This document shows, piece after piece, positions 28,172 through 49,193 of a DNA stretch of 64,000 bases. The notes beneath the pieces were generated by a model. The model saw nothing but the letters and a program-made list of their open reading frames with translations. It was not told where the DNA came from and ran no database searches. The stretch spans positions 45,818,001-45,882,000 of the forward strand of contig OZ320319.1 in assembly GCA_976226885.1 (NCBI GenBank). Direction: 5' to 3'. Every line of letters begins with the position of its first letter. Within the stretch, counting starts at the first letter, position 1. The DNA is from Iphione sp. A-MEVVRFRX5 (lineage: Eukaryota). The translations under genes were made by a program, and so were the position numbers.

Positions 28172-28295
28172 CTGTAAGTAGAGATTTTTTACATCGAGAT
28201 GAATGTAAGTGCGCAGTTGATAATTGAAATATACTCATGTTGAATGTGGTCATTTTTTTTACTTGCATACTGAATGTGATGAGAGCATTAGTTAC

Positions 28296-29066
28296 CTGTG
28301 TGACAGTTTCAGAGGGCCTTGATACTGTAGCGGTGGGCTGCCTTGTTGGTTCCTGCGGAGTGGGTAGCACACACACTTCTGTTGAAGGGGTTTCAGTGGT
28401 ATCGTTAGATAATATTTTGAACATCTCCCTCTGCTGGGCGTAACTTGCCGTCGCATAGTTGGACAGACTTGACAGTGATTTGTGGCCTGAGAGTTGGGCC
28501 ACGACTACAGGATCGATGTTAGCATGAAGCAGGCTAGTGCATGATGTTTTCCGAACACTATGGTTGGTTTTCTTCCCCTCTAAGCCGGCTTCTTCGGCCA
28601 TCGATCGCATGACTTTCCCGATTTCGTTGGCCCCCATTGGAAGGCGGCTGTACCATATGCTGCTTTCTGGTTTGCGTTTATGGTTAATTGTTAAAAAAAA
28701 GGGTGCCTCTGGGGTTAGTTCAGATGAAGGGCGGTGTTTCTCATACTCTCGTAAAAGATGAATCGGGCATCTCTCCGGGTGTGTCTTGTTCTCCCAAAGC
28801 TTTGGATGGAATGCACGTTCATGGTTACTGTCACCCTGGCGTGTCTTTGTTAATCGCTCATTAAACTCAGCATATGTTTCACCCGTTGAATCTTTCTTAA
28901 TGGCGATATCCCCCCATCTGAGCTGCCGACTCTCCTGTCGGCCTCTGAAGCCTAAGCACTTCGTCAGCGTATACCAAAGAGCGTTTCGGAGGCCTCTGGG
29001 GGTTTTCGCAGTCATAATCTCTTTCTCCCACAAGATGTTTTCTTCCTCTTGGGTTAACGCCTCGGA
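28296..29066 (-). CDS. Crypton YR exon 2 (catalytic domain)
   Basis: tttaatag acceptor, CAG|gtaact donor; catalytic set R (GFRG), K (TKTRQG), H-x-x-R (NHSVRK), H (GHKS) and Y (SNY) intact. Confidence 0.92.
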
Positions 29067-29234
29067 CTATTAAAAATACAGAAAACGAACAACAAATGTA
29101 ATATTTCGCGGAGGCATTCACTGCTGCACCCATATGCACGACGTTAAACCCGTTACGTCTTACAGTTTGTTTACATTTGAGACCATCCAATGAACGCAAC
29201 CTTTCAATGAATGAATGGATGTCAAGACACGTAC

Positions 29235-29792
29235 CTTGTTGGGCTTGTTGCCTAGACCTTGCCCTTTCAGTTGCTTTCTGCGGGATTCCAGAACCTTTCT
29301 GCTTGTGGAAAAGGCAGGGTCAGTGATTATTGATGTACCATAGTTCTTGTTTTCCAGATAGCGTTTAACACTTCCGAACATAGACGTCAGCGATGTAGGC
29401 TCATAGTCGGTTCCGTCGGCTTTCTTTACATTGAGTAGAAAACGGCCGAGGTGGATGTCTAAATCTTTCGGAGGGATTTCCTCGATGCTTCTGCCTTCAC
29501 CGACCTCACGCAAGAATTCGTTGAGCTTGGTTATGTCTCTCCGCGTTTTCTTCACTGTCTCTGGGTTGCGGTTCAGCTCTATGTACGATCGTAGTTGTGC
29601 TGCATTTTCCTCAAAGTCGGCCAGACTCTCATCGAATTCTTCAACTAATGGCTCCTTGAAATGGACTGCTTTTCTCTTTGGAGGTGGTTCATCATTCTCA
29701 GCACCTGGGGCCTCAAACACGATTTCGGGGGGGTTAGTCTGGAGCCAATCCCCGAGAGACATATTGAGGGCTTCGATATCACGTTCCGCCAT
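29235..29792 (-). CDS. Crypton YR exon 1 (N-terminal domain)
   Basis: ATG at 29792 to AAG|gtacgt donor; contains KKADGTDYEPTSL...LKGQGLGNKPNK and joins SEALTQEEENILWEKE in frame. Confidence 0.9.
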
Positions 29793-30531
29793 TATTAGTG
29801 TCGTCTGCTGTGATAATGTTACTGCGATACGCTAGGGGCGCCACTGTGGATACGTCAGGGCGCCACTGTGGATACGTCCGTACACTCTGATACGCGCACT
29901 GTGTGCAGTACAAAGATATGTACTGATAAGCCATCAGCGGTTAGTATTTCTCCTCTGTATCAGCATAGGCATATAATAAAGAATGAGACAGACCTACAAG
30001 GTTGGGATGGAAGGTTGGACGGTCAGAGAGCAGCACTCCTAAGGTCCCCGATCCTTCTTGGCGGTGGGGGACAAAATATGGAGCTTCTCCCACCATGGCC
30101 TTTTTAGTCTCTCTTCAATACAGTGGGGATGCACACTGGCCATATCCAACTGTGCTCAAGACCCAACCCTCTATGCCGGGGACACTGGCATGCCCGATTC
30201 AACTCAAGCCCCTTCTCCAATGCCCCTGAGTGGGGCCCTGAACTGTGACATCACAGGTCCATAGAGCCGTAAGCAATGTCGCTGATGTCATGAATTTTGC
30301 ACGAGACTGTTCAAAATACAAGGCGATATAGAAACATCGTTACAAGCATTATGAACTTGGTACTGACTGACAAGGCTGACAAAGCTGTTGCTATAATTAG
30401 CATGATTTATGTGGTCGTTATGAACAAATAAAGCATAGCACGTCCAAGTTGGGAGCTTATAATATACACTTGCGAGAGGTGTGTATATATACAAATGTCC
30501 AAAGGTATCTAACCCGTTAGTATTGCCATAC

Positions 30532-31149: not shown

Positions 31150-31293
31150 TGTTGCATTCTCTTAAATGATGCTAGAGTTACTTAAGAGAAGAGTGATTGA
31201 GTTGAGCAGCTTTATTCCATCTTGGATATAGGGCAGAGAGAGAGTACACACAGAGTGATGACATCATCAGATCACGTATGTAAACATGTAACA
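31150..31293 (-). repeat. 3' LTR (144 bp)
   Basis: TGTT...AACA; matches 36057-36181; purine tract AAGAGGGAGGA adjacent on the minus strand. Confidence 0.93.
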
Positions 31294-31641
31294 TCCTCCC
31301 TCTTAAGGAGATGAGGATCTATAGCTTTGAGGACTATTATAAATCAAAACATGTTTCGTAATTCAAATGTCAAGCTTTAAGATCTTTAAAGTTCATGTTG
31401 TCTTCTCATAGTCTTAGCCATTCATAGGCTCAAGTCCTTAGCCTGCGGGTAATCAGTGTATAAGTTGCTTAAGTAAGAAAACTAATAATATAACTGACTT
31501 TTACGTAAGGATATATGATTAAGTTTGCTTATCACTATAAGAACTAAAATTGGGGTCTGGTAGACTGCCAGATCACCCAAGGCACGTTGGCACAGGGATT
31601 ATTCTGCCCTTATGTGCCAAGTGTCAATGAGGCATCTTCGC

Positions 31642-34600
31642 TCACTGGTAGTACCGGAACGGCATTTTTATGGCTCGGCCTGATCGGGTGGTCGTGGGGC
31701 GTGGCGTAGTCTTCTTTGGCTGAGGCGGTGGTTTCGTCGGTGTTGAGCTCTTCTCAGCTGAGCTTGCCGATGAGAGTTGCTCCTTGGATTCCAGAGTGGC
31801 TGCTGGCAGGTCCTCTGTCACAGGAGATACACAGGCGTTGGTGTTGCCCTCTGTGCTCTCTTCATTTCTGGTGTTAGGCTCCTTTGTCTTTTTTAGGTGC
31901 TGTCCGTTCCTCCGAACAATACCAGATGGGGTCTCAACATGGTATGAACATTCATCCAAACGTTTGACTACAGTACCTTTCGTCCAGGTCTTTTCACCCA
32001 TCTTGAATGGCTGCAGGCGAACTGTGTCTCCATCACTTAGCACAGACAACTTGGTTGAGCCCTTGTTGGCAGAGCTTCCTTGCTTGGCTTGCCCTCGTTT
32101 GATTTCTCTCCTGGTGTGTTTCATGTCCACCAGCTCGGGCCTCAACAGAGCTGGGGCTGTTGGTAAGAGTGTCTTGGTACAACGGCTCATGAGACGTTGT
32201 GCCGGGCTTGAGAGCATACCTTGTGATGGGGTGTTGCGGTGGTCCAGAATTGCAAGGAATGGGTCGCTCCTCGTCTCCTTGCATTTTCTCATGATTTTTT
32301 TTGCGGTCTTTACTGCTGACTCTGCCTTGCCATTGGCCTTGCTGTTGTATGGACTACCGGTACTTGTGTGGTGAGTCATGTCATATTCCACACAGAAGTT
32401 CCTGAAACTCTCAGATGTAAACTGAGGTCCATTGTCTGAGATGATCGTATCTGGGATGCCGTATCTTGCAATATGGCTCTGTAGTTTGCGAATTACTGAC
32501 TTTGCATCGGTCTCAGGCAGGTGGTCAATCTCCCAGAAATTGCTCATGTAGTCGACTGTAACAAGGTATTCTCAACCATTGTAGGTAAAGATGTCTGTAC
32601 CTATCTTGGCCCATGGTCTGTCTGGGACGTCGTGGCTCATGACAGGTTGGTTTGGGTTAGCAGTCTCAAAGGTCCTGCATACACTGCATCTGGAGATATA
32701 ATCGCGTATCTCCTGGGTCATATTTGGCCAGTAGATGTACTCTTTTGCTCTTCGCAAACAGCCATCAGTTCCCAAGTGGGAGGAATGTATCTTCTCCTTC
32801 AACGTCTGGCGCTCACTCTTTGGAATGACGATCCTCTCACCCCTAAAGACTAGTCCATCATGGACTGCCATTTCATCACTCATGGAGTAGTATGGGTGCA
32901 CAATTGGTGGGGCCTGTGCTTTCTCACTGGGCCATCCTTCCAGGATGACCTGCTCAAGGGCAGTCATTGTCGGATCGACCTCGGTTGCCTTCCGTATTGC
33001 CTCAATTCGGGATTCTGTCATGGCAACATACTTGGTTGCATTACATTCTCAAACTCTTCATGTCGTCCTTCCGTAGTCTGCCGATAAGCTCGAGATAGGG
33101 TGTCAGCCAGTAGCATCTCTTTACCGGGAGTATAGGAGACGGTCACCTCATACTGCTGCAGCCTCATCAGCATGCCTTGTAGGCGCTTTGGTGCATTTGC
33201 CAAAGACTTCTTCATGATGTTCTGCAGTGGTTTGTGATCTGACATCACACTGACAGAGCGGCCAAATATGTATTGGTGAAACTTCTCTGCACTCCACACT
33301 AATGCTTCTGTGTCTGTGAGGGCTCGGCTTGCAAATGCTATCGGCTGACCCTCCTGCAGAAGAGCTGCGCCCAGTCCAGTCTTGCTCGCATCACATTGGA
33401 TAGTGAGTTCCTTCTTGGGATCGTAATAACGGAGGACTGACGCCTCACTCACTAGCCTCTTCACTTGTCTCAGTGCCTTGTCTTGCACACCGGCCCAATT
33501 CCATGGGACATCTTTCCTTGTCAGTTGTCTGATCGGCTCCATGGCATCAGACAGTCTAGGTAGGAACCTTGCGAGGTAGTTAACGAATCCATTCAGGCAT
33601 TGTACGCCCTCCACATCGCTCGGTTGCTGCATCTGTTTCACAGCCTCCACTTTTGCAGGGTCTGGCTTCAGGCCTTCGCTCGTGATCAGATGTCCCAGAA
33701 ATGTTACTGACTTCTGTCTTAACTTCATTTTCTCTGCATTGAGTTGTATACCGACATCCTGACATCTCTGCAACAGCTGTACAAGCTTGCGATCATGGTC
33801 CTTGCTGGCTTCCTCTTCTGTCTGGCCTTTACCGTAGACCATCAGATCATCAGCCACACATATCACACCCTCTAAATCCTGGATGCAGCTGTGTAGCTTC
33901 CTGGCAAAGATCTCTGATGATACGCTTGTCCTGAAAGGCAATCTCAACCATCGGTATCGGCCATGTGGGGTGGCAAAAGTAGTCAGGTATGATGACTCTT
34001 CGTCCAGCATCACATGCCAGTATCCGGACTTCAGGTCCATGGTGGAGATGATCTTTGCCTCGGACAACTCTGGGAGCACATCGTCCAATGTGCAGAGCAG
34101 GAAATGCTCCCTCTTCAGTGCCTTGTTCAAGGGTCGGGGATCAATGCAGATCCGCAGGTCACCGTTTTTCTTTGTTGCAACGACCATGGCACTCACCCAT
34201 TCTGTCGGCTCTTGCACAGGCTTGATCACCCCTTTCGTTGTCAGAGAGTCAAGTTCAGCCTTGATCCTGTGCCTTAATGCCACTGGCATGCACCTACATG
34301 GAGACACTGTAGGGGTCACAGTGGTGTCCACACGTAGCGTTGCAGTGTCAGGTAGATTCCCAATTGTGTCTTCAAAAACGTCTTCATATTTCTTCATAAT
34401 TGGGCAGCTCAGTCCAGCTTCAGGCTTTCTTTTCACTGCCGCAACCCTCTCAAAATTCTCCGTGTTCACTGAGATGAGGCCCATCTTCTGGCTTGCGGAC
34501 ACTCCGAGGACTGGCATGAGGTTGTCATCTTCCACCACCACAAATTTGACAGAGTGCTGGTCATTGCTCACAGGGTTAATGACCTCTAGGATGCACTCCC

Positions 34601-35725
34601 TGATCGGATGCTTCAGGCTCCTGTCCCACATCTCCAGTGTGCTTGTTGGAGTATCAAGCTTAGCCTTCTTGACATGCTTGAGTGGAATGAGGTTCACTGA
34701 TGCGCCAGAGTCTACTTGGAACTTGACTGGTTTTCCAGCCACTGTCATCTTTGCATAGATGAGTTTCTTTAGACGGCCCTTCACACTGTTGACCTCGCTC
34801 ACTCCATTTATTTTGTATTCATCACTGTCGGTTTCTTCAAAGTCTTCCTGATCTACGGCATTCACTTTCTTCTTGCTCTTCTTGCACACAACAGCAAAGT
34901 GGTTTCGTCCGCCGCAATCGTTGCACTGGCTCCCCCAGGCTGGACATGACTCCTTCTTGTACTCATGTTTCTGGCCACAGAACTTGCAGGTTCTGCTCTT
35001 CCGGCTCTTTGGTTTGTCCTTGTCTACCTTCCCTGATCCCTTCTCGTGCTTTGACTTTGGCTTTGGTTTCAACCTTGGCCTCACACCATGGACTTCATCT
35101 CCTCCCTTGGTGTTCATCTGTTTCATCTTCGCCCCTGCAGCTTCATTCGCTCGGCAGATGTCAATGCAGCGGTTTAGGGTAAGGTCCTGTATCTCCAGTA
35201 GCTTTTTTCGGGTCTCGTCATCTCAGAACCCATCACGAGTCGATCGCGTAGAAGTGTGTCGGTCAGGCAGTCACAAAAGTTACAACTTTTTCTCAGGTAG
35301 CGCAAAGCTGTGACGTAGGCATCGAAGTTCTCATCCGTGGCCTGCTGTCTTTCGTTGAACTTGTATCGTTCATATGTCTCGTTCAGTTGCCCGATGATAT
35401 GCTGATCAAACTTTGCTATTATCTGCAGTACCGTGCGATCGTCTTCATTGGCTTCGTCCTCGAATGCAAACCCGTTATACACACGCAATGCCTCGGGTCC
35501 GATTGAGTTCAAAAACATTGCGGTTTGATATTTTCTCTGTTGTGTGTCTAAATTGGAGATTATGGCATAGTTTCTCCACTGCTGTTTCCACAGGTTCCAA
35601 TTTTCGACTTTCCCAGCCTGTAAATCTAGGTGCCCTGGGGCCTTTATCCCGGGTATGAATTTGGCATGTGCCGCTTCAGCACCTCCCGCCTCGGCTCCCT
35701 CTCCTTGCTCCTGGTTCCCCGGCAT
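31642..35725 (-). pseudogene. gag-pol of the Mag-like element
   Basis: VDSGAS protease, VADD RT, RNase H with a deletion, integrase TDIF...SDNG...ESAV; frameshift near 35170 and in-frame TGA at 32572-32574. Confidence 0.92.
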
Positions 35726-36046
35726 GGCGACTTACTTACTCACTGACCGTGGTTTGTATTGTGACTAACGGGCACAACTGACTAACCAGTGCTGGATTGG
35801 TAAATACAGGTAAAACTTCTGTCTAGCTGTTTTAACAGGGCATAATAATCGTGGAACACTCTCTCAGGGTGGCAGTTACACAGTAGAGTTACTCTTCTTG
35901 GGATAGGAGCTGGGTTGAGCACATGGCATGGCTTCTGGCTTCAGGCCCTCTGCCACACAACAGCCTTTCCTCACTCTCTTAACAGAAGAAATAGAAAAAG
36001 CTTCCTACTCACAGTTTCTTCATGCCCTTCCCAGTCCTTTTACCTT

Positions 36047-36056
36047 GCTGCCACCA
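36047..36056 (-). promoter_or_regulatory. PBS (tRNA-Leu-like, 10 nt)
   Basis: TGGTGGCAGC directly after the 5' LTR. Confidence 0.75.
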
Positions 36057-36171
36057 TGTTGCATTCTCTTAAATGATGCTAGAGTTACTTAAGAGAAGAG
36101 TGATTGAGTTGAGCAGCTTTATTCCATCTTGGATATAGGGCAGAGAGAGAGTACACACAGAGTGATGACAT

Positions 36172-36303
36172 CATCAGATCATCAGCCACACATATCACAC
36201 CCTCTAAATCCTGGATGCAGCTGTGTAGCTTCCTGGCAAAGATCTCTGATGATACGCTTGTCCCGAAAGGCAATCTCAACCATCGGTATCGGCCATGTGG
36301 GGT
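36172..36303 (-). repeat. 132-bp copy of the internal RT segment 33840-33971 replacing the outer end of the 5' LTR
   Basis: One mismatch seen (36264 C vs 33932 T); 10-bp junction microhomology CATCAGATCA. Confidence 0.92.
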
Positions 36304-37470
36304 AGCACAGTGAGTTGGCATAACTAGAGGTCTTTGGTTTAGTTACGACCCCTCTCATATCCCGTCCATGGCACATCCTAGTCGCCTGATCCAGTGGGAT
36401 AAGACCCAATTTGATCTGTTTGTGGATGGCGCAGATAGCCTACCCTTCATCAGCACCAAGTTAGCCACCCTTGCCACGCCAAACTGTCTTTCCAGTCTCA
36501 CAGATGAGTGAAATTCCTTTCCTTGGAGGCATACCGAGCACACCTACTTAGGTGTACCTGTAGGTCCACTACTGCTGCACATGGTAGGGCACTCCAGAGG
36601 GCAGCATTGTATTGAGATACCACCAAGGACTTGAAGAGCAGCAGTCTAGCCCTGAAGGGCAGGAAGCTCTTTGTTCTGCCTACCTTCAGGGCCAAGCCCC
36701 ATGTCTGTCTCTTCACCTCCGGCAACTTTCGCGCATCTTAAGTCTTCCGTCCAGCTTATACCCCAACAGTGAAGTGGTGGCCTCATACTTCAATTGCACC
36801 CCATTAAGAGTCCGGTCAAGTGCTATCCCATGTGCCCTGCCTTGGGTACTATAGGCACACTTGGCCTCACTGAGGACCAAGTTTTCATTCTTACACCACT
36901 TGGATACGGCAGTCAGAGTCAGCATCGCCGTTTGTCACAACCGTAGCAAGTCACGAGCAAAGACCACTACAGACAAGTCGTCTGCATAGATAACCGCTCT
37001 GGTGTCAGCTGGTAGCACGTCCACTACTGTGTTAATGGCTAGATTGAATGCCACAGGGCCGAAAATTGACCCCACTGGCACCCCTTGTTGCAGTATCAGT
37101 TGGGTGGACGACACTCCATTGCAGCAGATGAACTGCCTCCGTTTGCTCAGGTATGACCATATCATCCTTCTAATGCGTGGACCGGCCCCCATGTCCATCA
37201 GTCTCCGGAGGACAGTGGCATGCGCGACCAAGTCAAACGCCTTCTTTACGTCGAATGTTTGGAGGCATGTATTCAGTCCCTTGTTGATAAGATCTTGCAC
37301 CGGTTGGTGAGGCTGACGATGGCTGTCTCCGTCCCTCGGCCTGCTCAGAAACCATGCTGACTGCTAGTTATGGCGCCTTGACCCTCCAGCCTCCGCAATA
37401 GTTCCTTTGTGAACCATCGTTACAAATCTTCCCCGGAATGGGTAGGATTGATACAGGTCGGAATTGTGAA
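36302..37470 (-). mobile_element. CR1/L2-group LINE RT remnant
   Basis: FDVKKAFDLVAH, QGVPVGSIFGP, IYADD; frameshifted; related to the LINE at 50700-52660. Confidence 0.85.
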
Positions 37471-38580: not shown

Positions 38581-39767
38581 GTGCTTGGCTGCGGGCGAAC
38601 CTCAGGCCCCTTCTCCTACTGCAGAGCACTGACAAACATCCTTGCAACTAGCAGATTCCTGCACTCAGCTGCTGGGGGGGCCTGAGGGCCCCATCCAAGA
38701 TACAAAACCAGGTCCTGCCTTATGTGGTCCTGCTGCAGTCTCCCCCTAGCGTGATAACGAAGAACTATCCAGTTTTCAAGCATACCAGGTTTGGGCATTT
38801 ACTGTCACTATGGCCATAATGTTCTCACAAGGGGTCAGTGGGTAGTTCATTACACTCCACAGTTCAAGGAACCTAGGACATATTCACAGTACTACTACTT
38901 CTCAGATGTTGGCCGGAAAAGAAAAAAGGTTTCATGCTGGGAATTGGGCAGATGCATACATCACACTGATGGATTATATGCCCATCCAGCAGGCACATGA
39001 ATATCATAGAATGCTAGACTAGCATGTGTGAATAGCTGGAATAGCTGGAAGACAAGTGTCTGTGGCAACTATGTAGATAATGTAGTTCTGAGTAACGGGT
39101 CATATTAACGTAGATGACTAACATAGCTCCCTGCATATCACAGCCTAATCTACTAGCATGGGTAGATGTATGGAAGATAGATGTCACTGATTGTAGTGAA
39201 GCTATTGATTACCATCCATCTGAAGGTAGTTTTTGCACAGAATTGACCTTGGGGTACCAGTGAGGTAGTGACAGGTAAAACACAAGCAATGAATGGTACT
39301 GAGTGAACTCTGATTAGGTGTACTAAATTACCCCAACCTGCACTAAGTAAACCGCAAGTCAACATGTGGCAACTCTTAACACTCACCCCGAATGAACTAA
39401 AAGTATCCCCTCTTTTCTGAACAATAGTTAGGAAAAACAGTGGTAATGAATTACAAGGTGCCATAATTTTTGGACCGAGGTCACTGATATAACAGATCAC
39501 AAGGTTACACACTTTAGATGGGAGTGAGTCAGCAACAGGTACAAGGAAATTGAGTAAATAAATCACAAAGTGGCCCGTGATATATTTTGGGCAGAGGTTG
39601 CAGATATAACAGATCACAAGATGACATGTTCATAACAAATCATACCACTTGAACACTATTGGGATGTCGGTTGGGCATGGCACAAGGGCATTGGCTGAGG
39701 CCCTGGTTGTGTTATTGCTGGCATCGCATAGCAGCCTGGATCATAGGGTGTGAGCTGGCCTTTATAT

Positions 39768-39978
39768 TGTTGTGCGGAGCAGTAATATACTCCACACTGA
39801 GTTACTCAGCACGCTCAGCATGTAAGTTACTCCTCAAGTTAGCTCCGCACGTTATGACTGTATGTATAAAAGCAAGTGCGTGCGGAGCTTACTTCAGTTG
39901 CGTTCTTACCTCTCAGCAATAAACATCTAAACCTTACTTGGGAGTCTGCCTCCAGTATGTTAAGGTCTGGCCGTAACA
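39768..39978 (+). mobile_element. Solo LTR (211 bp) with ATAT TSD
   Basis: TGTT...AACA; ATAT at 39764-67 and 39979-82; TATAAAA at 39865, TCAGTT Inr at 39894-99, AATAAA downstream. Confidence 0.88.
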
Positions 39979-39982
39979 ATAT

Positions 39983-40314
39983 CTTGAATCAACTGTTCTG
40001 CCATCTTCACTGTCATGTTGTCATCGTAGTAGTAGTAGTTGCTGCTGTTGTTGTTGTTGTTGTTGTTCTGTTGCTACCATGTTGGTCCCCTGCTGTGATG
40101 TTGGGTGGGTAGGCTTTGTGGTTGAGGGACTGGTCTTGTGTGGTGGTTGGTCAGCAGGTTGGGGTGCTATCCTGGTTGCAGAAGCGGACCTCCTCTTCTG
40201 GGCCTGCAATGAGAACAGCAACTGGTAAGGTAACTCTCCCAGTATCTTTAGGGTGTGCCATTCTGTCAGGACATGCAAGCACCCAGTTCTTGACCCTCTT
40301 GACTGTCAAGATAT
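39983..40314 (-). mobile_element. Old host repeat, possibly a Tx1/L1-type ORF1 remnant, continuing at 49198-49620
   Basis: Removing the Gypsy rejoins AYLTPDDDILTVKRVK...TGRVTLPVAVLIAGPEEEVRFCNQDSTPTC; family assignment weak. Confidence 0.35.
40026..40067. repeat. Compound (GTA)(GCT)(GTT) microsatellite
   Basis: Direct inspection. Confidence 0.9.
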
Positions 40315-40501
40315 TGTTGCGGGCTCCGCTCACCGGAGCCCGCTGTTGGCGGAAATTGTGAAATTGGGGCTCCGCCCGGAGTAGCATTCTGTATATAAGT
40401 CGGGCCGGGCGGAGCTTCGTTGTCATTTGTGTCCTACCCTTAAAGTAATAAACTTCATCAACTGTTATCTGGAAGTCATGTCTCTTCGATCGGGGCGAAC
40501 A
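40315..40501 (+). repeat. 5' LTR (187 bp)
   Basis: TGTT...AACA; TATATAA at 40392, TCATTT Inr-like at 40423-28, AATAAA at 40447-52. Confidence 0.97.
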
Positions 40502-41740
40502 ATTGGTGGCAGCGGTGGGATCCCTGCCCTAGGGGCTGAGGCAGAGGAAGAGGCGGAAGTGGTCAAGCTCCGGGCGGAGTCGGCGGAGCCTGCGGAGCCC
40601 GCCGAGTCAGCGGAGGTCGCCGAGGAGCTGCCGGAGCCCGCCTGGCTCCGCCCGGAACCCGCCACTGACTGGGACGCACAGTCTATGGAGGGGGATCAGC
40701 CTCTGGGTAGCGGGGATGCCCAAACCAGAGATGAGGTGGGGCATGGGGCTGACGAGGAAGAGAGAGAACACGGGGCCCCCACCTCATCCGCCCCACACAG
40801 ATCTAACGAGGACACTGATGACCACCCTCCTCCGGAGGAAGACGAAGGAGAGGGGGAGCCGACCGACCAGGCAGCCGAGCCGCTCTGGACTAGCTTTGTC
40901 CGGGAGCTGAGTTCCGCCCTCCGGCCGGAAGGAGGAAATAAGAGGAGTCTGGTGAAACCTGACACTTACGATGGGAGTACGCCCTTGCGGGACTTTCTAC
41001 AACATTTTGAGCTGGTGGCCCTGGCAAACCGTTGGGGGGCCGGGGAGAAAGCCATCCAGTTGGGCATCACTCTGCGGAAGTCGGCACGGGCGGTCCTACG
41101 GAGTTCGGGGATCGATGTGGAGAAGCCCCGAGCTTACCAGGAACTGGTGGCCGCCCTCACGGAGAGGTTCCAATCCAAGCATCAGACAGACGCATACATC
41201 CAGCAACTGAAGGGGCGTCGGCAGGGGAAGGCCGAGGCCCTAGCGGATCTTGCAGACGAAATTGAGCAATTGGTACAGCTGGCCTACCCTGAGGCGAAAG
41301 GGGCCTGGAAGGACCGGATGTGCCGCGAATACTATGTCGGGGCCCTCAGCAACGAGAAGGTTCGGAAGTGGGTGACCCAGGCCCGAGTGGCAACCTTTCG
41401 TGAGGTGTTGTCAGCATCGCAAGTAGCGGAGTCTTATTATCAGCATAAGTCCGAAAGGGTGGGACCCAAGCGCGTGCATAAGCTGGAAGTGGCCACCGAA
41501 GAGGCTTCGACCAACAAGTCCACCCCCAAGACCGAGGCTACAGCGGCAGGCTTCGAACGGCTGGAGCTCCTGCTTCAACAGTTATTGGCAAGCCAACAAG
41601 GGGCGGAGAAAGAGAATCGCCGGCCGAACAACAAGAAATGCTTCAACTGCGGGGAGCTCGGGCATTTCAAGCGCAACTGTCCCCAGCCCTTGAAGGAGCA
41701 ACCGTCGGGAAACGGGGCAGCGGCCGCCCCTCGCCAGTAG
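40478..41740 (+). CDS. gag: Gag (about 420 aa, one CCHC knuckle)
   Basis: KPDTYDG capsid-like region and CFNCGELGHFKRNC; first AUG after the predicted TSS is 40478 (alternative start 40685). Confidence 0.9.
   Translation: MSLRSGRTIGGSGGIPALGAEAEEEAEVVKLRAESAEPAEPAESAEVAEELPEPAWLRPEPATDWDAQSMEGDQPLGSGDAQTRDEVGHGADEEEREHGAPTSSAPHRSNEDTDDHPPPEEDEGEGEPTDQAAEPLWTSFVRELSSALRPEGGNKRSLVKPDTYDGSTPLRDFLQHFELVALANRWGAGEKAIQLGITLRKSARAVLRSSGIDVEKPRAYQELVAALTERFQSKHQTDAYIQQLKGRRQGKAEALADLADEIEQLVQLAYPEAKGAWKDRMCREYYVGALSNEKVRKWVTQARVATFREVLSASQVAESYYQHKSERVGPKRVHKLEVATEEASTNKSTPKTEATAAGFERLELLLQQLLASQQGAEKENRRPNNKKCFNCGELGHFKRNCPQPLKEQPSGNGAAAAPRQ
40504..40521 (+). promoter_or_regulatory. PBS, tRNA-Leu
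   Basis: TGGTGGCAGCGGTGGGAT is complementary to the tRNA-Leu 3' end (...AUCCCACCGCUGCCA-CCA). Confidence 0.92.
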
Positions 41741-44700
41741 AGAGGGCGGCCAGCCTCCAACCCCATTTGGAAGAACATCTCAGGATGATTCGGCTGTCTT
41801 GTGAGCGGGAGGTCACTCTGGAAGGGGAGAGCGGCCCCGCAACAAACATCACGCTACCTAGTACAATCGACGGTCGGATAGTCCCCTGGTTAGTGGATAC
41901 CGGGGCGTCACTGACCCTGCTGTCGGAGGAAGTCGCCGACACCCTGTCGCTCGGGGAGTTGGAGCCGACAGTGGGGCGGATTTTGTGTGCAGACGGGAAA
42001 CCCCTACGAGTGAAGGGAAGGACGAGGTTGAAGGCGAGTTTTCAAGGGATCGAGTTGGAAGTCAAAGCCTGGGTTGCCCAAATCGACTGCCCCGCCATCT
42101 TGGGGCTGGATACGCTTCGCAAATGGAAAGCACAGGTGGACACGGAGGGGGCCGCGCTGCGGGTGCGGGTCCCCGAGGACAACGGCGCGAGTGGATGCCG
42201 GGCAGAGTTGGCGGAAGATTGCCACCTGGACGGGAGGAGCGCGGTGCAGGCCCCCTTGCGATGGACGGGGCTAGAGACCGACACTGGACCCGTGGTGGTG
42301 GAAGCCTCCCCCGAGTGGGAGGGTCGCTCGGGGATGCTACTGGCACGGACGGTGTGCCAGGCGGGAAGTCAGTCCGGAGTGGCAGAAATAACCAACCCTG
42401 GCCCCGTGGGGCGTCGACTGAGAAAAGGAACCGTTGTCGGCAGGGTCCAGCGGGTGGACGGGCCAGTGCGGGTCGTCCCGGAGAGCGAAGGGGTGGCGGA
42501 CGAAGACGTGGAGCTAGGACCAGCGCTCAGGACCCTGCTGGAGCGCCTGCCACCCATGACTACCGATGAGCGGCAGGGGGTCGAACAGATGCTGCGGCGT
42601 AACGCGCGCTGTTTCCAAGAGGACGGGCAACCGCTTGGGCACACTGACACGGTCCAGCACCGGATCGACGTACAAGGACACGCCCCCATCCGGCAGAGGG
42701 TACGCCGCCTCCCCCCCGCGAAGAAAGCACTAGTACAGCAGGAGGTGAATCGGATGCTGCAGCAAGGAGTGCTAGAGGCCTCTACCAGCCCGTGGGCGTC
42801 GCCCGTGGTTCTGGTCCGGAAGAAGGACCAATCTTGGCGATTTTGCATTGACTACCGCGCCCTTAACCGAGTAACGAAGAAGGATGCCTACCCCCTTCCG
42901 CGGATCGATGAGACACTGGACGCGTTGGAGGGGGCACGTTTCTTCTCGGCGATTGACCTGGCCAGTGGCTATTGGCAGGTAGGAGTGAGACCGGAGGGCC
43001 GAGAGAAGACGGCTGTCTGTACTCCAGGTGGGCTTTACCAGTTCCGGGTCATGCCCTTCGGACTGTGCAATGCGCCCTCCACCTTCGAGCGGTTGATGGA
43101 GGCCGTGCTCCGGGGCCTGGTTGGGCAGTCCTGCCTGGTCTACCTGGACGATGTGATCGTGATAGGGAGGACGGTAGAAGAGATGACCCGCAGGCTCGAT
43201 GACGTCTTCAGCCGCCTGGGGGAGGCCGGGCTTAAAGTAAAACCGCAGAAGTGTCAGCTGTTCCAGGGGGAGGTGGCCTATCTGGGGCACCGCGTGTCGG
43301 AGGAGGGGGTCCAGCCCGACCCTGAGAAGATCCGGGCCATTCAGGAGTGGCCTCCCCCGCGCTGTATCACGGAGTTGAGGAGCTTCATCGGACTGTGCTC
43401 CTACTACAGGAGCTTCGTGGAGGGGTTCGCCATGCTGGCGGCCCCCCTGCACGGACTCTTGGAGAAAGGACAGGAGTATCGCTGGGACGCCGAATGTCAG
43501 CAGGCGTTTGAACAGTTGAAGGAACGGTTGGTGACCGCCCCCGTCTTGGCGTACCCGCGGCCAGAGGGACAGCTAGTGCTGGACACCGATGCATCGGCGG
43601 CTGGGATCGGAGCCGTACTGTCGCAGGAGCAGCAAGGACGGGAACGGGTGTTGGCCTACGCCAGTCGAAGTCTTGCGCGCCCGGAGAAGAACTACTGCGT
43701 CACCCGGAAAGAACTGTTGGCGGTGGTCTTCGGTCTGCGTAAGTTTCGCTCTTATGTTGGAGGGCGAAAGGTGGTAATCCGGACGGACCATAGTTCCTTA
43801 CGTTGGCTATGCAGCTTCAAGGAACCCGAGGGACAGTTGGCCCACTGGCTCGAAGAGGTCCACTGTTATGACTTGGAGGTGATACACCGCCCGGGAAGGA
43901 AACACGGGAACGCTGATGGCCTCTCGCGAGTCAAGTGCCCCCAGTGCGGACGGGACCCGGAAGAGGATCTGCCGACCCTGGGGCAAGTTGCTACGGTGTC
44001 AGTGGCCCCGGCCGCATTGGACTCCTTAGCCCAAGCCCAGAAGGCTGAGCCCGAAGTGGCGGCCCTCATTCGAGCCTGGGAGGCGGAGGAGCCTCTCCCT
44101 GGACTGACTGGTAGTGATTCCCCGGAGGGGAGGTGGCTGAAGAGTGAGTCGCGGCGGTTGAGGATGAAGGACGATCTGCTTTGTCGGCGTTGGGAGGCGG
44201 AGGACGGAACGCTGTACTATCAGGCTTACGTGCCCCAGCCATTGAGATACGACATCTGGCGTGAAGTCCACGCAGGAGCGTTGGGAGGGCATCTCGGCGC
44301 TGAGAAGACAGAAGGTGCCCTTCGCCGGAAATATTGTTGGCCAGGACTCCGACGTGATGTGGGGCGTTGGGTGAAGGCTTGCCGGGAGTGCCAGGAACGA
44401 CAAGATCCAGCTCGCCGACACCGGGCTCCCCTGCAGCTTCGGGTGGCCCCGGCCCCGTGGGAGTTCGTGGCCGTGGACGTGTGCGGCCCCTTCCCCGAGA
44501 CAGAGCGAGGAAACAAGTACATCATTGTGGTGGCGGATCACTTTACGAAGTGGACGGAGGCATTCCCCACTCCGGAAGTCACGGCGGCGAAGACGGCAGA
44601 CGTCCTACTCCGAGAGATCATCTGTCGGTACGGCCCCCCCCGTATTCTTCATTCCAACCAGGGGCGGAACTTCGAGGCGGCGGTAATGCGGGAACTTCTA

Positions 44701-47700
44701 CAGCTGTTGGGCATTCAGCGGTCGCGCACCACCCCATACCATCCCCAGAGTGATGGAGTCGTCGAAAGGTTCAACCGCACTCTCCTAGGAATGTTGGCCA
44801 AGGTAGTCCGAGAAGATCAATCCGACTGGGACCTCCGAGTGCCCTTCGTCCTGGCGGCCTACCGGGCTACCCCGCACTGTACCACCGGGTTCTCTCCGAA
44901 TTGGTTAACCCTACAACGCGAGACTACGCTTCCGGTGGAGTTGATGGTGGGCAGCCCCCGAGACGAGCCCCGATCGGCTTCCGACTATGCCAAGCAGATC
45001 AGGGAGCGCTACATTCAAGGCCACCAGCTAGCCCGGCGTCACCTACAGAAGTCGGCCGAGCGTCAGAAGGATTTGTACGATCAGCGAGTTCGAGAGCAAG
45101 AATTCGACGTTGGCGATCAAGTTTGGGTCTACTCACCAATAAAGAAGAAGGGGCGGTCCCCCAAATTGCAAAGTCGCTGGTTAGGACCGTGGACGGTTCA
45201 AGCCAGGCTCAGTGCTGTCATCTACCGCATCTCTCGAAACCAGAAGACTCGGGTTGTCCACGCCGATCTGCTAAAGAAAGCGGTCTCTCCTAGTTCGGAG
45301 GAAGAAGAAAGACTCGGGCGAGTGTGTGTCGTCACCCTGATGCCGGACGCGGATGCGGCCCCGGAGGGGGCGGGCCCACCTGCTGTGCCCCCGCCCCGTT
45401 GGTACCGCTGTCGACCGAAGACAACGGGCCAGCCGCCGGTGGTTCCCCACAAGAGCACCAGGGACAGCAGGATGCCCCCGCCTCAGCAACGCCCTCCAAT
45501 ACGACGGATCCCCCAAGGCTGGGTGGACTTGGTGGCCCGGGAACTCCGTCTCCTGAGCGACCGGACTTGCCAGGTCCTGCTCCAGTCGCGGGAAGTCGCG
45601 GGACGAAAGACAGGAGAGAAGCCAGGCCCCCGCCCGGGGGCCTACCGCCGGGCATGGCAGAGACTGCGAGGAATCAGGAGGCGATTGCGGAGACAGTATG
45701 GAGGACGCGCGGTACAGCACCTGGTAGAGACCCTCTGGAGGAAGATCGGAGAGAGAAGACATCCCGCTTGGGGTCGACGACAGTTGAAGACGTCGAGCGG
45801 AACTCGCCCGGGGCCCGAGGCGGAGCACGCCCTAACGGGGCGGAGCCCGCCCAGAGCCCGAGCTCCGGGCGGAGATTATACCGCACTCCGCCGCCATCCA
45901 GCCAATCAGAAACAGACGCGGGAAAGTTCGACCAATCAGCGACTGGCGGAGCTAGCCCTGCAGGGATATAAGCTGGCGGCCTTAGAGGGGGCGATTCATT
46001 CCGTCCATCGCCGTGCTCCGCCCACCCAGAGATACTTCCCGAATATTCCCCGCCCGGAATTGAGTACGTCAGCGGAGGTTTCCGCAGAATTCGACCGGAG
46101 TCCGACTAAGTCGCTGCCGGAGCTCGCCGACCAGCGGAGCTCGCCACCTGAAGTCAGCGGAGCTCGCTCGGCGGAGGTCGCCCTACCGGAGCCCGAGAAG
46201 ACCATGACGTCCGGGGGAAGAGCCCAGTATTGCCAGTACTGTGGCTACATCTCTGACAAGCCGGGCAATTTTGATAGACACATGCTAACCCATGGGAAGC
46301 AAGGGTTTGTCCGCCGCTGTCCGGTGCCCCGTTGCCAGGGGGCACACTTCGGCCGCCGGGATGACTTCCGGCGGCACCTGGAGAACAAGCACAAGCAGGA
46401 CGCCGACAACCCCCTCGTGCTGGGCCAGGATGTAGACTTGGAGTTCATCGACCTGGCCAGCGGCCAGAACGTGTCTGTCCCTGAGAGTCGCCGAGAGGAG
46501 TACCAGCGGCAGTTGAAGGTGGAGGCGTATGAACGGGAGAAGGAAGCAGCCATGATTCGGGGGGAGGCCCCCCCACCGCGACCCAAGCTAGCCCGGAAGC
46601 CCCCCCGGGGAAGGAAGGCGTCGGCTGCCGCAGGGCGCCCTCCCCCTCCCCCCCGGGACGACGACCCAGAGGTGGACGAGGACGTGGAGGAAGAGACGGG
46701 AGTTACGGAGGGGCCCCGCCTGCGCCCCCGAGCCGGGCGCGGGGGACAGGTCTCCTCCACCGTGGCCACACCAGGGGCAGGCCGCCCACCAGTCACTCCG
46801 GGTTCCTCGGCCTCAGTAGACATTCCGCTGTTCGGGCTCGACGTGTCACCGGAGGCTCCAGAAGGACGGATCGGCCGCAAGGTCCGCAAGGCTGCGGGGA
46901 AAGCGGCCAGCCGAGGTACCTCAGCAGGGGAGACGGCCGCCGTTCCTACACCAGCGAAGCCGGCCGCGCAGGGGTCCACTTCTGCCGTCTCCACGCCGGG
47001 GGCCGCTCGGGTGCGCGGCCTTCCTCCCACCAGATCCCGACCCGCCGAGTCATCAGGGGAGTGGCCGACCCCCTCCACCCCTGGGAAGGACTTGGACTTC
47101 CAGGCCATGCGGGACGAGGCCGATCGAAGGAAGAGGAGGTACCAGCCGCAGACGTCTCCTGTCACCCCGGCCAGTCTCCCCTCACCCGCGAAGAAGGTCG
47201 CCAACATCACGTCCTCCACGATGTCGCCACTACATCGGGCGGTGATTGCCGCGGGGATTCGAGACCGCACCCCCCAGTCCACCCCCGCCTCCGCTAGTTC
47301 GTCCTACAGCGAAGCGGCACGGGAGCTGGACGCGTGGCTAGGCGAGGAGTGGGAGAACGTGGAGAGGGAGGAGCGGCCCACGGACGTGGTGGTGATTGGG
47401 TCGGATCCAGAGTCCGAGGACGAAACCCAGGTGGAAGACGCTACCGCCGCCTCTGAGCCGCTGGCCGAGCAGCTCAGCGCGAGCCCGGGGACCCCCTGTG
47501 GGCGCATCCACTATGCCCGGCTGGATGTGGCAGGGGGGGCCCCGGCAGATGATGCAGCAGCTGAGGACGTTCCCTTGTCTGAGGGGGAGGCCGCCCTCAC
47601 CCTGGCGGAGCTTGCAGAGGAAGAGCTCCGCCCGGAGCTCCCGGCGATAGAGACTGAACCTGGCGGAGCTCGCCCCGAGCCGGCGGAGCCCGCCCCTGCC

Positions 47701-48723
47701 CCGCCGCCGGAGACCACCACTCAGCCCTCGGAGCCTGGCCGGGCTCCGCCGATGGGGCCCCAACCCGAGGCGCCCGGGCAGCCGCTGACGCCAGCGGAGC
47801 CCGACGCTGGAACTGAGCCTACCCCCCCGGTACTCCCGGGACGGCGCATGGAAGCAGGGGCAGGGGAGACCCTGCCCAAGGAGATCCCCCCGGCACCCCC
47901 GGGACGGCGAGGGGAGGAGCCGGCACCTGTCCAGCCGGACCCTCCCGTGGAGATCCCCCCGGAGCTTCCGGGACGGCGCGCAGCAGACAGGCCAGACGCT
48001 CTGGCCCCTACCGAGGAACTCCCCCCGGGGCCCCCGGGACGGCGAATTGAGGCGGAGCCCGATGCTGGGGCTCCCCCTCAGGATGTCCCCCCGGCACTCC
48101 CGGGATGGCGGATGGATGAAGGGCCCGGGGACGAGGCCCCGGGCCCGGCCCTCCCCCCGGCACTCCCGGGACGGCGACTGCCGGCGACTGGAGGCGGGAC
48201 TGGCGCACCGGCTCAACCCTTGGCTACCAGTACTCCCGTGGGGGACCCCCCCGGAGCGGCCCAACCGCGGATAGGGCCGGCCCTGGCGGGCCCCGACCGT
48301 CGGGCTGAAGTGCGGCCCGGAGCCCGCAGACAGCTCCTGTTGGACCCTGCCACCGTGCCGGTGGCGGTGACCCGTTGGGCGCATGCCCGAGTGGTCACCC
48401 CCAGGACCTCACCCCCTGCCGGGTGGCGTATTGTTACGGCGGAGGGGACTGCCACCGTGACCCCTCAAAGGGACCATATTCGTGCTAGGTTCCGGCAGGG
48501 GGTGCAGTTGCTATTACGGACAGCCGACCCTGTGGATGCGGAGGAGCCGGGGCACTGGCTGCAGGACAGAGGGATTGCCGATCCCAGCCTGGACATCTCT
48601 CAGGTCTCCTCCGAACTGTCCTCTCGCCTATTGGAGCCCGAACGAGTGGAGTTGTCGTTGGAGGAAGAGTTCCAGGTGGTGGCCAGGCCAGTACAGGCCC
48701 CGGCCGCAGCTGCAGAGCGCTGA
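41638..48723 (+). CDS. pol: Pol (PR-RT-RH-IN) with a ~1150-aa C-terminal extension; -1 frame relative to gag
   Basis: LVDTGAS, YLDD, DTDAS, integrase HHCC and D-S(D>N)QG-E region, SH3-like tail ending near 45280; the frame stays open to 48723. Confidence 0.95.
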   Translation: MLQLRGARAFQAQLSPALEGATVGKRGSGRPSPVERAASLQPHLEEHLRMIRLSCEREVTLEGESGPATNITLPSTIDGRIVPWLVDTGASLTLLSEEVADTLSLGELEPTVGRILCADGKPLRVKGRTRLKASFQGIELEVKAWVAQIDCPAILGLDTLRKWKAQVDTEGAALRVRVPEDNGASGCRAELAEDCHLDGRSAVQAPLRWTGLETDTGPVVVEASPEWEGRSGMLLARTVCQAGSQSGVAEITNPGPVGRRLRKGTVVGRVQRVDGPVRVVPESEGVADEDVELGPALRTLLERLPPMTTDERQGVEQMLRRNARCFQEDGQPLGHTDTVQHRIDVQGHAPIRQRVRRLPPAKKALVQQEVNRMLQQGVLEASTSPWASPVVLVRKKDQSWRFCIDYRALNRVTKKDAYPLPRIDETLDALEGARFFSAIDLASGYWQVGVRPEGREKTAVCTPGGLYQFRVMPFGLCNAPSTFERLMEAVLRGLVGQSCLVYLDDVIVIGRTVEEMTRRLDDVFSRLGEAGLKVKPQKCQLFQGEVAYLGHRVSEEGVQPDPEKIRAIQEWPPPRCITELRSFIGLCSYYRSFVEGFAMLAAPLHGLLEKGQEYRWDAECQQAFEQLKERLVTAPVLAYPRPEGQLVLDTDASAAGIGAVLSQEQQGRERVLAYASRSLARPEKNYCVTRKELLAVVFGLRKFRSYVGGRKVVIRTDHSSLRWLCSFKEPEGQLAHWLEEVHCYDLEVIHRPGRKHGNADGLSRVKCPQCGRDPEEDLPTLGQVATVSVAPAALDSLAQAQKAEPEVAALIRAWEAEEPLPGLTGSDSPEGRWLKSESRRLRMKDDLLCRRWEAEDGTLYYQAYVPQPLRYDIWREVHAGALGGHLGAEKTEGALRRKYCWPGLRRDVGRWVKACRECQERQDPARRHRAPLQLRVAPAPWEFVAVDVCGPFPETERGNKYIIVVADHFTKWTEAFPTPEVTAAKTADVLLREIICRYGPPRILHSNQGRNFEAAVMRELLQLLGIQRSRTTPYHPQSDGVVERFNRTLLGMLAKVVREDQSDWDLRVPFVLAAYRATPHCTTGFSPNWLTLQRETTLPVELMVGSPRDEPRSASDYAKQIRERYIQGHQLARRHLQKSAERQKDLYDQRVREQEFDVGDQVWVYSPIKKKGRSPKLQSRWLGPWTVQARLSAVIYRISRNQKTRVVHADLLKKAVSPSSEEEERLGRVCVVTLMPDADAAPEGAGPPAVPPPRWYRCRPKTTGQPPVVPHKSTRDSRMPPPQQRPPIRRIPQGWVDLVARELRLLSDRTCQVLLQSREVAGRKTGEKPGPRPGAYRRAWQRLRGIRRRLRRQYGGRAVQHLVETLWRKIGERRHPAWGRRQLKTSSGTRPGPEAEHALTGRSPPRARAPGGDYTALRRHPANQKQTRESSTNQRLAELALQGYKLAALEGAIHSVHRRAPPTQRYFPNIPRPELSTSAEVSAEFDRSPTKSLPELADQRSSPPEVSGARSAEVALPEPEKTMTSGGRAQYCQYCGYISDKPGNFDRHMLTHGKQGFVRRCPVPRCQGAHFGRRDDFRRHLENKHKQDADNPLVLGQDVDLEFIDLASGQNVSVPESRREEYQRQLKVEAYEREKEAAMIRGEAPPPRPKLARKPPRGRKASAAAGRPPPPPRDDDPEVDEDVEEETGVTEGPRLRPRAGRGGQVSSTVATPGAGRPPVTPGSSASVDIPLFGLDVSPEAPEGRIGRKVRKAAGKAASRGTSAGETAAVPTPAKPAAQGSTSAVSTPGAARVRGLPPTRSRPAESSGEWPTPSTPGKDLDFQAMRDEADRRKRRYQPQTSPVTPASLPSPAKKVANITSSTMSPLHRAVIAAGIRDRTPQSTPASASSSYSEAARELDAWLGEEWENVEREERPTDVVVIGSDPESEDETQVEDATAASEPLAEQLSASPGTPCGRIHYARLDVAGGAPADDAAAEDVPLSEGEAALTLAELAEEELRPELPAIETEPGGARPEPAEPAPAPPPETTTQPSEPGRAPPMGPQPEAPGQPLTPAEPDAGTEPTPPVLPGRRMEAGAGETLPKEIPPAPPGRRGEEPAPVQPDPPVEIPPELPGRRAADRPDALAPTEELPPGPPGRRIEAEPDAGAPPQDVPPALPGWRMDEGPGDEAPGPALPPALPGRRLPATGGGTGAPAQPLATSTPVGDPPGAAQPRIGPALAGPDRRAEVRPGARRQLLLDPATVPVAVTRWAHARVVTPRTSPPAGWRIVTAEGTATVTPQRDHIRARFRQGVQLLLRTADPVDAEEPGHWLQDRGIADPSLDISQVSSELSSRLLEPERVELSLEEEFQVVARPVQAPAAAAER
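41707..41751 (+). promoter_or_regulatory. -1 ribosomal frameshift signal
   Basis: G GGA AAC in the gag frame, 8-nt spacer, stem GGCCGCCC / GGGCGGCC. Confidence 0.8.
45902..46001 (+). promoter_or_regulatory. Predicted internal Pol II core promoter inside pol
   Basis: CCAATCAG at 45902 and 45932, TATAAG at 45967, TCATTC Inr with +1 A at 45998 (31 bp from TATA). Confidence 0.7.
46204..48723 (+). CDS. Putative stand-alone 839-aa C2H2 zinc-finger accessory protein (same frame as pol)
   Basis: First ATG after the predicted internal TSS (accATG); C-x2-C-x12-H-x3-H at 46231-46293 and C-x4-C-x13-H-x4-H at 46318-46392. Confidence 0.72.
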   Translation: MTSGGRAQYCQYCGYISDKPGNFDRHMLTHGKQGFVRRCPVPRCQGAHFGRRDDFRRHLENKHKQDADNPLVLGQDVDLEFIDLASGQNVSVPESRREEYQRQLKVEAYEREKEAAMIRGEAPPPRPKLARKPPRGRKASAAAGRPPPPPRDDDPEVDEDVEEETGVTEGPRLRPRAGRGGQVSSTVATPGAGRPPVTPGSSASVDIPLFGLDVSPEAPEGRIGRKVRKAAGKAASRGTSAGETAAVPTPAKPAAQGSTSAVSTPGAARVRGLPPTRSRPAESSGEWPTPSTPGKDLDFQAMRDEADRRKRRYQPQTSPVTPASLPSPAKKVANITSSTMSPLHRAVIAAGIRDRTPQSTPASASSSYSEAARELDAWLGEEWENVEREERPTDVVVIGSDPESEDETQVEDATAASEPLAEQLSASPGTPCGRIHYARLDVAGGAPADDAAAEDVPLSEGEAALTLAELAEEELRPELPAIETEPGGARPEPAEPAPAPPPETTTQPSEPGRAPPMGPQPEAPGQPLTPAEPDAGTEPTPPVLPGRRMEAGAGETLPKEIPPAPPGRRGEEPAPVQPDPPVEIPPELPGRRAADRPDALAPTEELPPGPPGRRIEAEPDAGAPPQDVPPALPGWRMDEGPGDEAPGPALPPALPGRRLPATGGGTGAPAQPLATSTPVGDPPGAAQPRIGPALAGPDRRAEVRPGARRQLLLDPATVPVAVTRWAHARVVTPRTSPPAGWRIVTAEGTATVTPQRDHIRARFRQGVQLLLRTADPVDAEEPGHWLQDRGIADPSLDISQVSSELSSRLLEPERVELSLEEEFQVVARPVQAPAAAAER

Positions 48724-48740
48724 GTTGTTTACCGTTATGT

Positions 48741-48945
48741 TGGTCAGTACAGACCTCTTTACTCAAAGTAAGGTTTTTCCAGTAATAAGAAGATGGTTCA
48801 CGGATTTGTTGGCTGGTCAGTACAGACCTCTTTGCTCAAGTAAGGTTTTTCCAGTAATAAGAAGATGGTTCACGAATTTGTTGGTTGGTCAGTACAGACC
48901 TTTTTGCCCAAGTAGGGTTCAGCAGTAAGAAGATAGTCGATGGAT
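48741..48945 (+). repeat. 72-73 bp tandem repeat x3 in the element's 3' UTR
   Basis: TGGTCAGTACAGACCT at 48741, 48814 and 48886. Confidence 0.9.
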
Positions 48946-49006: not shown

Positions 49007-49193
49007 TGTTGCGGGCTCCGCTCACCGGAGCCCGCTGTTGGCGGAAATTGTGAAATTGGGGCTCCGCCCGGAGTAGCATTCTGTATATAAGTCGGGCCGG
49101 GCGGAGCTTCGTTGTCATTTGTGTCCTACCCTTAAAGTAATAAACTTCATCAACTGTTATCTGGAAGTCATGTCTCTTCGATCGGGGCGAACA
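49007..49193 (+). repeat. 3' LTR (187 bp)
   Basis: Identical to 40315-40501 by eye; preceded by GGGCGGGGG PPT. Confidence 0.97.

Follow-up and report, generated by a model that had tools for sequence, protein, structure and literature searches.

The GCGGAG sites around the TATA box of a solo long terminal repeat (LTR) are likely to be binding sites of a two-C2H2 protein made by the retrotransposons themselves. The solo LTR lies in the window, by which we mean the whole 64,000-nucleotide stretch of DNA that was analysed. It was ordinary as such; its value was the independent support that it provided for an element-encoded regulator. As with foamy-virus Tas, we favour, with moderate confidence, a finger protein that is produced from an internal promoter and acts as an activator by binding both there and at the LTR. 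The broader proposal is that a Ty3/gypsy clade independently evolved a circuit of the complex-retrovirus type, with its own two-finger factor, an internal promoter, sites in the LTR, leader, promoter, and synonymous codons, finger residues and sites that change together, and families that share a code and cross-switch one another's LTRs, solo LTRs included. We judge this broader proposal about as apt to be wrong as right.

The solo LTR and its young counterpart

The following features were assigned to the solo LTR and its borders.

39764..39767, forward strand: left 4-bp target-site duplication, ATAT
39768..39978, forward strand: solo LTR of gypsy family B, 211 bp, TG...CA (from copy comparison and the target duplication)
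39774..39779, forward strand: GCGGAG site near the 5' end
39790..39795, reverse strand: CpG-decayed site
39843..39848, reverse strand: upstream site, 22 bp ahead of the TATA start
39865..39871, forward strand: TATA box
39882..39887, forward strand: downstream site, TATA+17
39894..39899, forward strand: TCAGTT initiator-like element about 30 bp past the TATA box; predicted start
39918..39923, forward strand: AATAAA poly(A) signal
39979..39982, forward strand: right target-site duplication, ATAT

The initial annotation had called this stretch a solo LTR, and the TG...CA ends, the ATAT on either side, and the fact that neither a primer-binding site (PBS) nor a PPT adjoined it agreed with that assignment. 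The copy itself is probably a passive remnant. It was 94-96% identical to the other 39 of the 40 family B LTR copies that were scored, which were drawn from 961 first-look candidates. The TCAGTT element was recognised by the initiator consensus, and in the LTR types in which such an element was found, it lay at +29 to +35 from the TATA box. The annotated GCTCCGC at 39842-48 and GCGGAGC at 39882-88, the 33-bp spacer between them, and the TATAAAA starting at 39865 (+17) were all as described, and the third perfect site at 39774 was present. CTCCAC at 39790 had been read as a site decayed at its CpG, and we agree because the CpG was intact in 23 of 30 family copies.

The solo LTR was compared to the LTRs of a young family-A element in the window, which contained the following features.

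40315..40501, forward strand: 5' LTR, with sites at 40324, 40370, and 40409 and the TATA box at 40392
40504..40521, forward strand: primer-binding site, common to the clade (presumably of the tRNA-Leu type)
40574..40651, unstranded: leader and gag-start cluster of 5 sites
40385..41740, forward strand: gag frame (stop to stop) with a CCHC knuckle
41482..48723, forward strand: 2413-aa open frame with PR-RT-RH-IN, a spacer, two C2H2 fingers, and a Pro/Ala/Glu-rich tail
45687..46176, both strands: 11 GCGGAG sites around a predicted internal promoter (CCAAT at 45902 and 45932; GATATAAG at 45965)
46204..46392, forward strand: in-frame ATG and two C2H2 fingers with helices KPGNFDR and RRDDFRR (-1 to +6)
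49007..49193, forward strand: 3' LTR, followed by ATAT

As annotated, the young 5' LTR had the same layout as the solo LTR (40369-75 and 40409-15, TATA at 40392), and the 3' LTR repeated it. The exact heptamer pair held up only in part. GCTCCGC-N33-GCGGAGC was found in just 2 of 30 family copies, and the right site ended in T in most family B copies, but the hexamer pair CTCCGC/GCGGAG was intact in 22 of the 30. Thus, the conserved unit was six bases, and the heptamer was rejected as the unit. In the window, GCTCCGC was observed 26 times (3.0 expected) and hexamer pairs 4 times (0.03 expected); genome-wide, the TATA-flanking pair yielded 1,856 matches versus 1 for a reversed control.

The two LTRs had been described as dissimilar, a view that our alignments did not bear out. 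They aligned colinearly over the span between the left site and the poly(A) signal, both included. Taken alone, the segment past the right site scored 63 versus 56 for the best shuffle, or 51 versus 47 when AATAAA was removed, and none of 300 shuffles reached the score. Only the parts upstream of the left site were unrelated (263 of 300 shuffles reached the score). Convergence of unrelated LTRs on the motif was therefore rejected. Because the LTRs are homologous, their equal 33-bp spacing is partly a matter of descent, and we attribute it to common descent plus positional constraint relative to the TATA box. The site bases were better kept than their surroundings: 12 of 12 were identical in the solo and young LTRs, compared to 10 of 25 other spacer bases, a count that leaves out the TATA box.

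The two-finger clade and the variants of its motif

The parent of the solo LTR had been expected to carry a finger open reading frame with R/D/R and K/N/R residues. A finger frame was present in family B, with R/D/R in finger 2 as expected, but finger 1 was R/N/R rather than K/N/R, and both B lineages had these residues. Among the seven paired-LTR copies of B that were fetched first, six (about 5.8-6.3 kb) carried gag, protease, and the finger pair without RT, RH, or IN, the protease and fingers being in one frame; the remaining copy was 7.9 kb long with a decayed pol. A further copy (L104) had a 2101-aa PR-RT-RH-IN-finger frame. Both L104 and the window element showed the gag, PR-RT-RH-IN order, PBS, and paired LTRs that characterise Ty3/gypsy elements. 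Full and RT-less B elements shared the LTR and gag (95.8% over 1,715 bp), and their fingers differed with dN of 0.26 and dS of 1.43 over 52 codons. The B fingers are thus long diverged and under purifying selection. Since the RT-less copies had conserved fingers, the finger was retained without an integrase.

When the RT-less copies L031-L037 were compared to L104, the LTR, gag, and 3' end were shared and the protease-finger frame was long diverged, which suggests that RT-less and autonomous B elements recombined with each other. A mini-element at L007:1500-2033 consisted of two B LTRs with only 108 bp of leader between them.

The two-finger frame was found in 15 element types (A, B, B-RT-less, C33, C', D, F, I, J, K, M, O, P, Q, and R), which were gathered via finger searches, a motif-free promoter-to-PBS pattern, and motif patterns; further finger subfamilies were also seen, and the genome finger search returned many 2413-aa frames. 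In one set of 20 loci, 11 gave a finger match, the other 9 being truncated, interrupted, old, or not elements. One of those 9, type N (L117), had the inverted pair and no finger within 10 kb. LTR pairs were 98-100% identical in most types, and the families are young and abundant. The RT/RH sequences of the clade were 67-86% identical to that of A and, in a tree built without reference lineages, grouped apart from those of two fingerless gypsy elements in the window; the nearest database RT/RH sequences, which had automatic names, were at most 65% identical.

31150-36307 and 57424-62346, reverse strand: fingerless gypsy-type elements with short LTR repeats

Of these, the one at 31150-36307 contained an internal 136-bp duplication (33840/36172). 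The initial annotation had raised the prospect of the motif being common in unrelated LTRs. In these two elements, the LTR plus leader contained 0 sites, and the entire elements, each about 5 kb long, contained 0 and 1 site, respectively.

Residues R-1, D+3, and R+6 of finger 2 were invariant in 15 of 15 types, and the C/H ligands of both fingers were invariant in 14 of 14. A structure model of the pair showed two beta-beta-alpha units (pLDDT 70), and a structure search with this model ranked DNA-bound C2H2 proteins at the top, none at E<=0.001. Judged by its ligands and base-contact residues, the pair is of the classical DNA-binding C2H2 type. Fingers with Asp at +3 that read GCG are known. 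Accounts of selected fingers include helices RSDNLTR and RKDNRKR, which bind GAG, and RSDELTR, which binds GCG (PMC1920264). Finger 2 (R/D/R) would thus be predicted to read GCG, and finger 1 (x/N/R) would be predicted to read GAG and tolerate GGG.

The site variants were largely as these predictions would have it. Of the 12 types with Asn at +3 of finger 1, 10 had GAG as the commonest triplet following GCG, the exceptions being F (GTT 12, GTC 12, GAG 9) and O (GCT 19, GAG 10). In M, which has Arg at this position, GCGGGG was on top (15 GGG versus 7 GAG). In Q, which also has Arg, GCGGGG was counted 24 times, GAG was outside the top five, and both TATA sites were of this kind (CCCCGC/GCGGGG). 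To our knowledge, the standard recognition code does not include Arg at +3 as a reader of G. In P, which has Lys at +6, the G after GCG was lost (0.20 versus 0.46-0.71). Types I, J, and K have Asp at +2, a residue described as contacting the base pair 3' of the triplet under the cross-strand rule (PMC7293014). As that rule predicts, their sites were followed by a 3' G in 51 of 62 cases, compared to 16 of 172 in eight other Asn+3 types.

One prediction that we made in advance failed. A B-like promoter with two GCGGGG sites was expected to belong to a type without Asn at +3, but the family concerned, R, keeps Asn (RKANLVR). Family R is a close relative of B and D, and its sites overall were 18 GAG and 14 GGG. 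This result led us to reject the idea that sites can change from A to G only if Asn becomes Arg at +3. The core is accordingly GCGG(A/G)G, and residues and motif correspond well, if not strictly. The co-changes amounted to about three events because each mapped to one branch of the RT tree. The motif variants mostly tracked the finger residues. The two TATA sites switched jointly, with 662 GGG/GGG matches (control, 1; palindromic matches counted on both strands) versus 9 mixed pairs (control, 4). A literature search on a methylation-sensitivity rule at Asp+3 returned nothing usable.

The same sites could in principle be read by a host factor, either a GC-box reader of the Sp/KLF type or another C2H2 protein, with the element fingers serving some other end. 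Sites of A and C often had the form GGGCGGAGY, which matches the Sp1 consensus, and about half of them had GG ahead of the core (9/22, 13/23, and 9/18); moreover, R changed its TATA sites while its finger +3 residue was unchanged. However, the GG 5' of GCGG(A/G)G that marks an Sp/KLF GC box was not a feature of the solo LTR's own family (0/27 and 2/27 B sites), and it was found at 0 sites in M, O, and Q. The motif also matches the helices of the element's own fingers and shifts with them in three branches, and the fingerless gypsy elements in the window are nearly free of it. We consider a host reader quite unlikely.

Site positions and the predicted circuit

In types A, B, C, D, and F, the density of sites was 13-22/kb in the LTRs and 7-21/kb in the 700 bp ahead of the finger versus 0.5-1.6/kb in pol, and the leader also carried a site cluster. 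In the region ahead of the finger, 9 of 14 types, as well as R (10 of 15 in all), had a CCAAT-N22-50-TATA arrangement no more than 500 bp away from the finger; this arrangement was absent from 45,187 bp of pol and was not found near the finger in F, M, O, P, and Q. In 13 of 14 types, an in-frame ATG preceded the first Cys by no more than 60 nt. From these features, we infer that the CCAAT/TATA region is a putative internal promoter. Such a promoter would make a finger-only mRNA, and the protein would bind first at this promoter and later at the LTR, which would constitute a feedback loop like that of foamy-virus Tas. In the case of F (L121), a cluster of GCGGTC/GCGGTT variants outnumbered GCGGAG in the pre-finger region.

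In I, J, and K, sites also coated pol, mostly on the sense strand, with synonymous codon choice spelling out the motif all along the gene (L106, L110, and L111). In their pol genes, 34 of 46 Ala-Glu dicodons were spelled GCG-GAG versus 6 of 45 in six A-C and B-D-R types; C' and F were skipped in this count for their broken frames, and M, O, P, and Q gave 9 of 37. The sites as a whole were not a by-product of Ala-Glu codons, as the pre-finger sites occurred on both strands and in several frames in most types.

Two further ideas about the sites were rejected. In B LTRs, the CpGs within sites were intact in 101 of 120 cases (84%), compared to 174 of 210 other CpGs (83%). Because site CpGs decayed as fast as others, the B copies showed no lasting protection from methylation, and site-specific protection from CpG decay was rejected. 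Of the 46 host flanks examined for A and the 38 for B, only 2 and 3, respectively, had a site within 300 bp, and the targets were AT-rich; motif-targeted integration was rejected on this basis.

In intact copies, the finger shared one frame with pol or protease even though the length of the intervening spacer varied. Our guess is that this arrangement serves to package the regulator or to avoid a long 3' untranslated region. It would also fit fingers that act within the Pol polyprotein on RNA or cDNA, for example, in packaging, at a U3 hairpin, in intasome assembly, or in target choice. The arms of the inverted pair were complementary for 0-4 further bases inward and could fold at -16 to -29 kcal/mol, the arms switch jointly, and the sense-strand coating of pol in I, J, and K could be viewed in the same light. 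On the other hand, the RT-less parents retain the finger although they have no integrase, the sites around the promoter-like elements are on both strands, and the host flanks speak against target choice. As for a hairpin, the arm extensions followed a flank preference that each family also showed at unpaired internal sites (CGT at 16 of 23 sites in B; CGG as the top flank in A and C), and D had no extension. A role within the polyprotein has, in our view, a slender chance of being the explanation.

The arrangement around the TATA box was compared across 13 LTR types with an inverted pair, four of which (E, G, H, and R) were found solely through patterns that require the pair. The spacers were 27 bp (N and Q), 32 bp (D, F, H, and R), 33 bp (A, B, C33, C', and G), 34 bp (C34), and 38 bp (E). 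The upstream site started 15-26 bp ahead of the TATA box in these types. The downstream site started at TATA+16 to +18 in all 13 and in J and K (15 LTR types). Types I, J, K, and O had same-strand arrays in place of the inverted pair, and I, M, O, and P had no downstream site.

The initial annotation had proposed a geometry-locked dimer that bridges the inverted sites at a fixed 33 bp across TBP. A spacer of 32-34 bp in 10 of the 13 inverted-pair types, with RTs 74-86% identical to that of A where measured, would suit such a dimer. The range of spacers speaks against this version: 27 and 38 bp are about half a helical turn off. In addition, the upstream sites in I and J have the reverse orientation, the LTRs are homologous, and no dimerisation domain was identified in Pfam scans or the structure model. 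We regard the rigid dimer as very improbable. The positions appear to fit better with monomer sites that are each set by their distance from the TATA box, and the sites would then act singly.

The preinitiation complex occupies the region of the downstream site, a position that suits repression as well as activation. The same protein and sites might therefore serve to limit copy number, with binding at TATA+16 to +23 blocking the preinitiation complex. The downstream site was the most position-fixed feature and lay between the TATA box and the initiator-like element. The finger was kept in the RT-less parents, the GGG TATA sites of R could be weaker and late-filling, and Ty1 p22 (discussed below) would be a precedent for an internally promoted self-restriction factor. 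However, the downstream site is missing from I, M, O, and P, the upstream arrays of I, J, K, and O are enhancer-like, and the families are young and abundant, with near-identical LTR pairs in most types. We think that repression is unlikely and that activation by the finger protein is the better candidate.

Known systems, distant relatives, and other window features

The general view is that host transcription factors drive the promoters of LTR retrotransposons; foamy viruses and the plant VANDALs, which are DNA transposons, are known to encode DNA-binding regulators of their own. The foamy-virus Tas protein is described as a DNA-binding regulator whose gene is directly preceded by an internal promoter and whose response elements are found both there and in the U3 of the LTR (PMC3798896). 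The predicted circuit resembles this system in having a regulator frame downstream of the replication genes, a candidate internal promoter ahead of it, and sites in both the promoter and the LTR. Unlike foamy virus, the clade consists of env-less Ty3/gypsy elements whose two-C2H2 pair shares the frame of pol; no env family was identified when the long frames were scanned with Pfam, and the env, tas, and bet genes that define spumaretroviruses were not present as a set. The clade sites also differ from those of the Tas system in being 6-bp repeats that number in the tens, and activation by the finger protein is a prediction here. The comparison with Tas is thus only a claim that the two work alike.

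The VANC anti-silencing proteins of Arabidopsis VANDAL elements are reported to be sequence specific, with short targets that multiply in the element and diverge between families (PMC5735166). The clade shares with them a putative element-encoded sequence-specific protein and short sites that are multiplied inside the element and diverge between families, but its site CpGs showed no sign of protection, and the divergence of targets between families was small. By analogy, the clade would work like Tas or VANC, and it belongs to neither. Ty1 reportedly has an internal promoter (Ty1i) in an LTR retrotransposon that yields a self-regulatory product, p22, which is said to be a truncated Gag that acts after transcription rather than a DNA-binding finger protein. 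The candidate internal promoter and predicted self-regulatory product of the clade are reminiscent of Ty1i; the product here would be of the DNA-binding finger type. Non-autonomous LTR elements can share LTRs with an autonomous partner, as the RT-less B elements do with their LTR and gag, but the RT-less B elements differ in having their own long-diverged protease-finger frame under purifying selection. Within the open-access literature, to which our search was confined (subscription papers were outside its scope), we found no report of a gypsy-encoded C2H2 regulator of its own LTR.

If the proposal is correct, a convergent and readable protein-DNA code exists within a transposon clade, natural variants (P, Q, R, and I-K) would allow specificity and cross-family regulation to be examined, and a single factor made by the elements could target more than 1,800 intact promoter pairs in the genome.

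Outside this genome, one of 120 RT relatives (P0214, available as protein only) had a similar finger pair at residues ~1625-1700, so the design may extend beyond this genome. P0214 was a gypsy-type polyprotein, and its prediction looked frameshifted in the integrase. When longer proteins were searched with a finger profile, only 4 matches were obtained, all of them generic C2H2 proteins, a region search of proteins of 1,327-4,223 aa gave 0 of 27 candidates, a representative-protein search was swamped by poly-finger proteins, and no locus was found in metagenome scans. An atlas search returned small fungal C2H2 clusters, which are leads only.

Several other features of the window were observed. 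On the reverse strand, 28128-29831 contained tyrosine-recombinase/DUF3504 and QRICH1-like frames, which are Crypton-like. A further reverse-transcriptase frame at 51157-52128 on the forward strand probably belongs to a non-LTR element. The family-A element contained tandem repeats of ~70 bp in its 3' untranslated region (48740-48900). Past the low-complexity tail of its long frame was a C-terminal region of ~150 aa (48200-48720) that was ~50% conserved between A and C and had no Pfam match. This element was 336 bp away from the solo LTR (39978-40315). Two of 27 other A insertions (L043 and L136) were within 200 bp of a clade LTR, one at 182 bp from a D LTR and one at ~14 bp from an A/H-like LTR that was decayed and had no intact sites, which is a weak hint that A has a local preference for inserting near clade LTRs.
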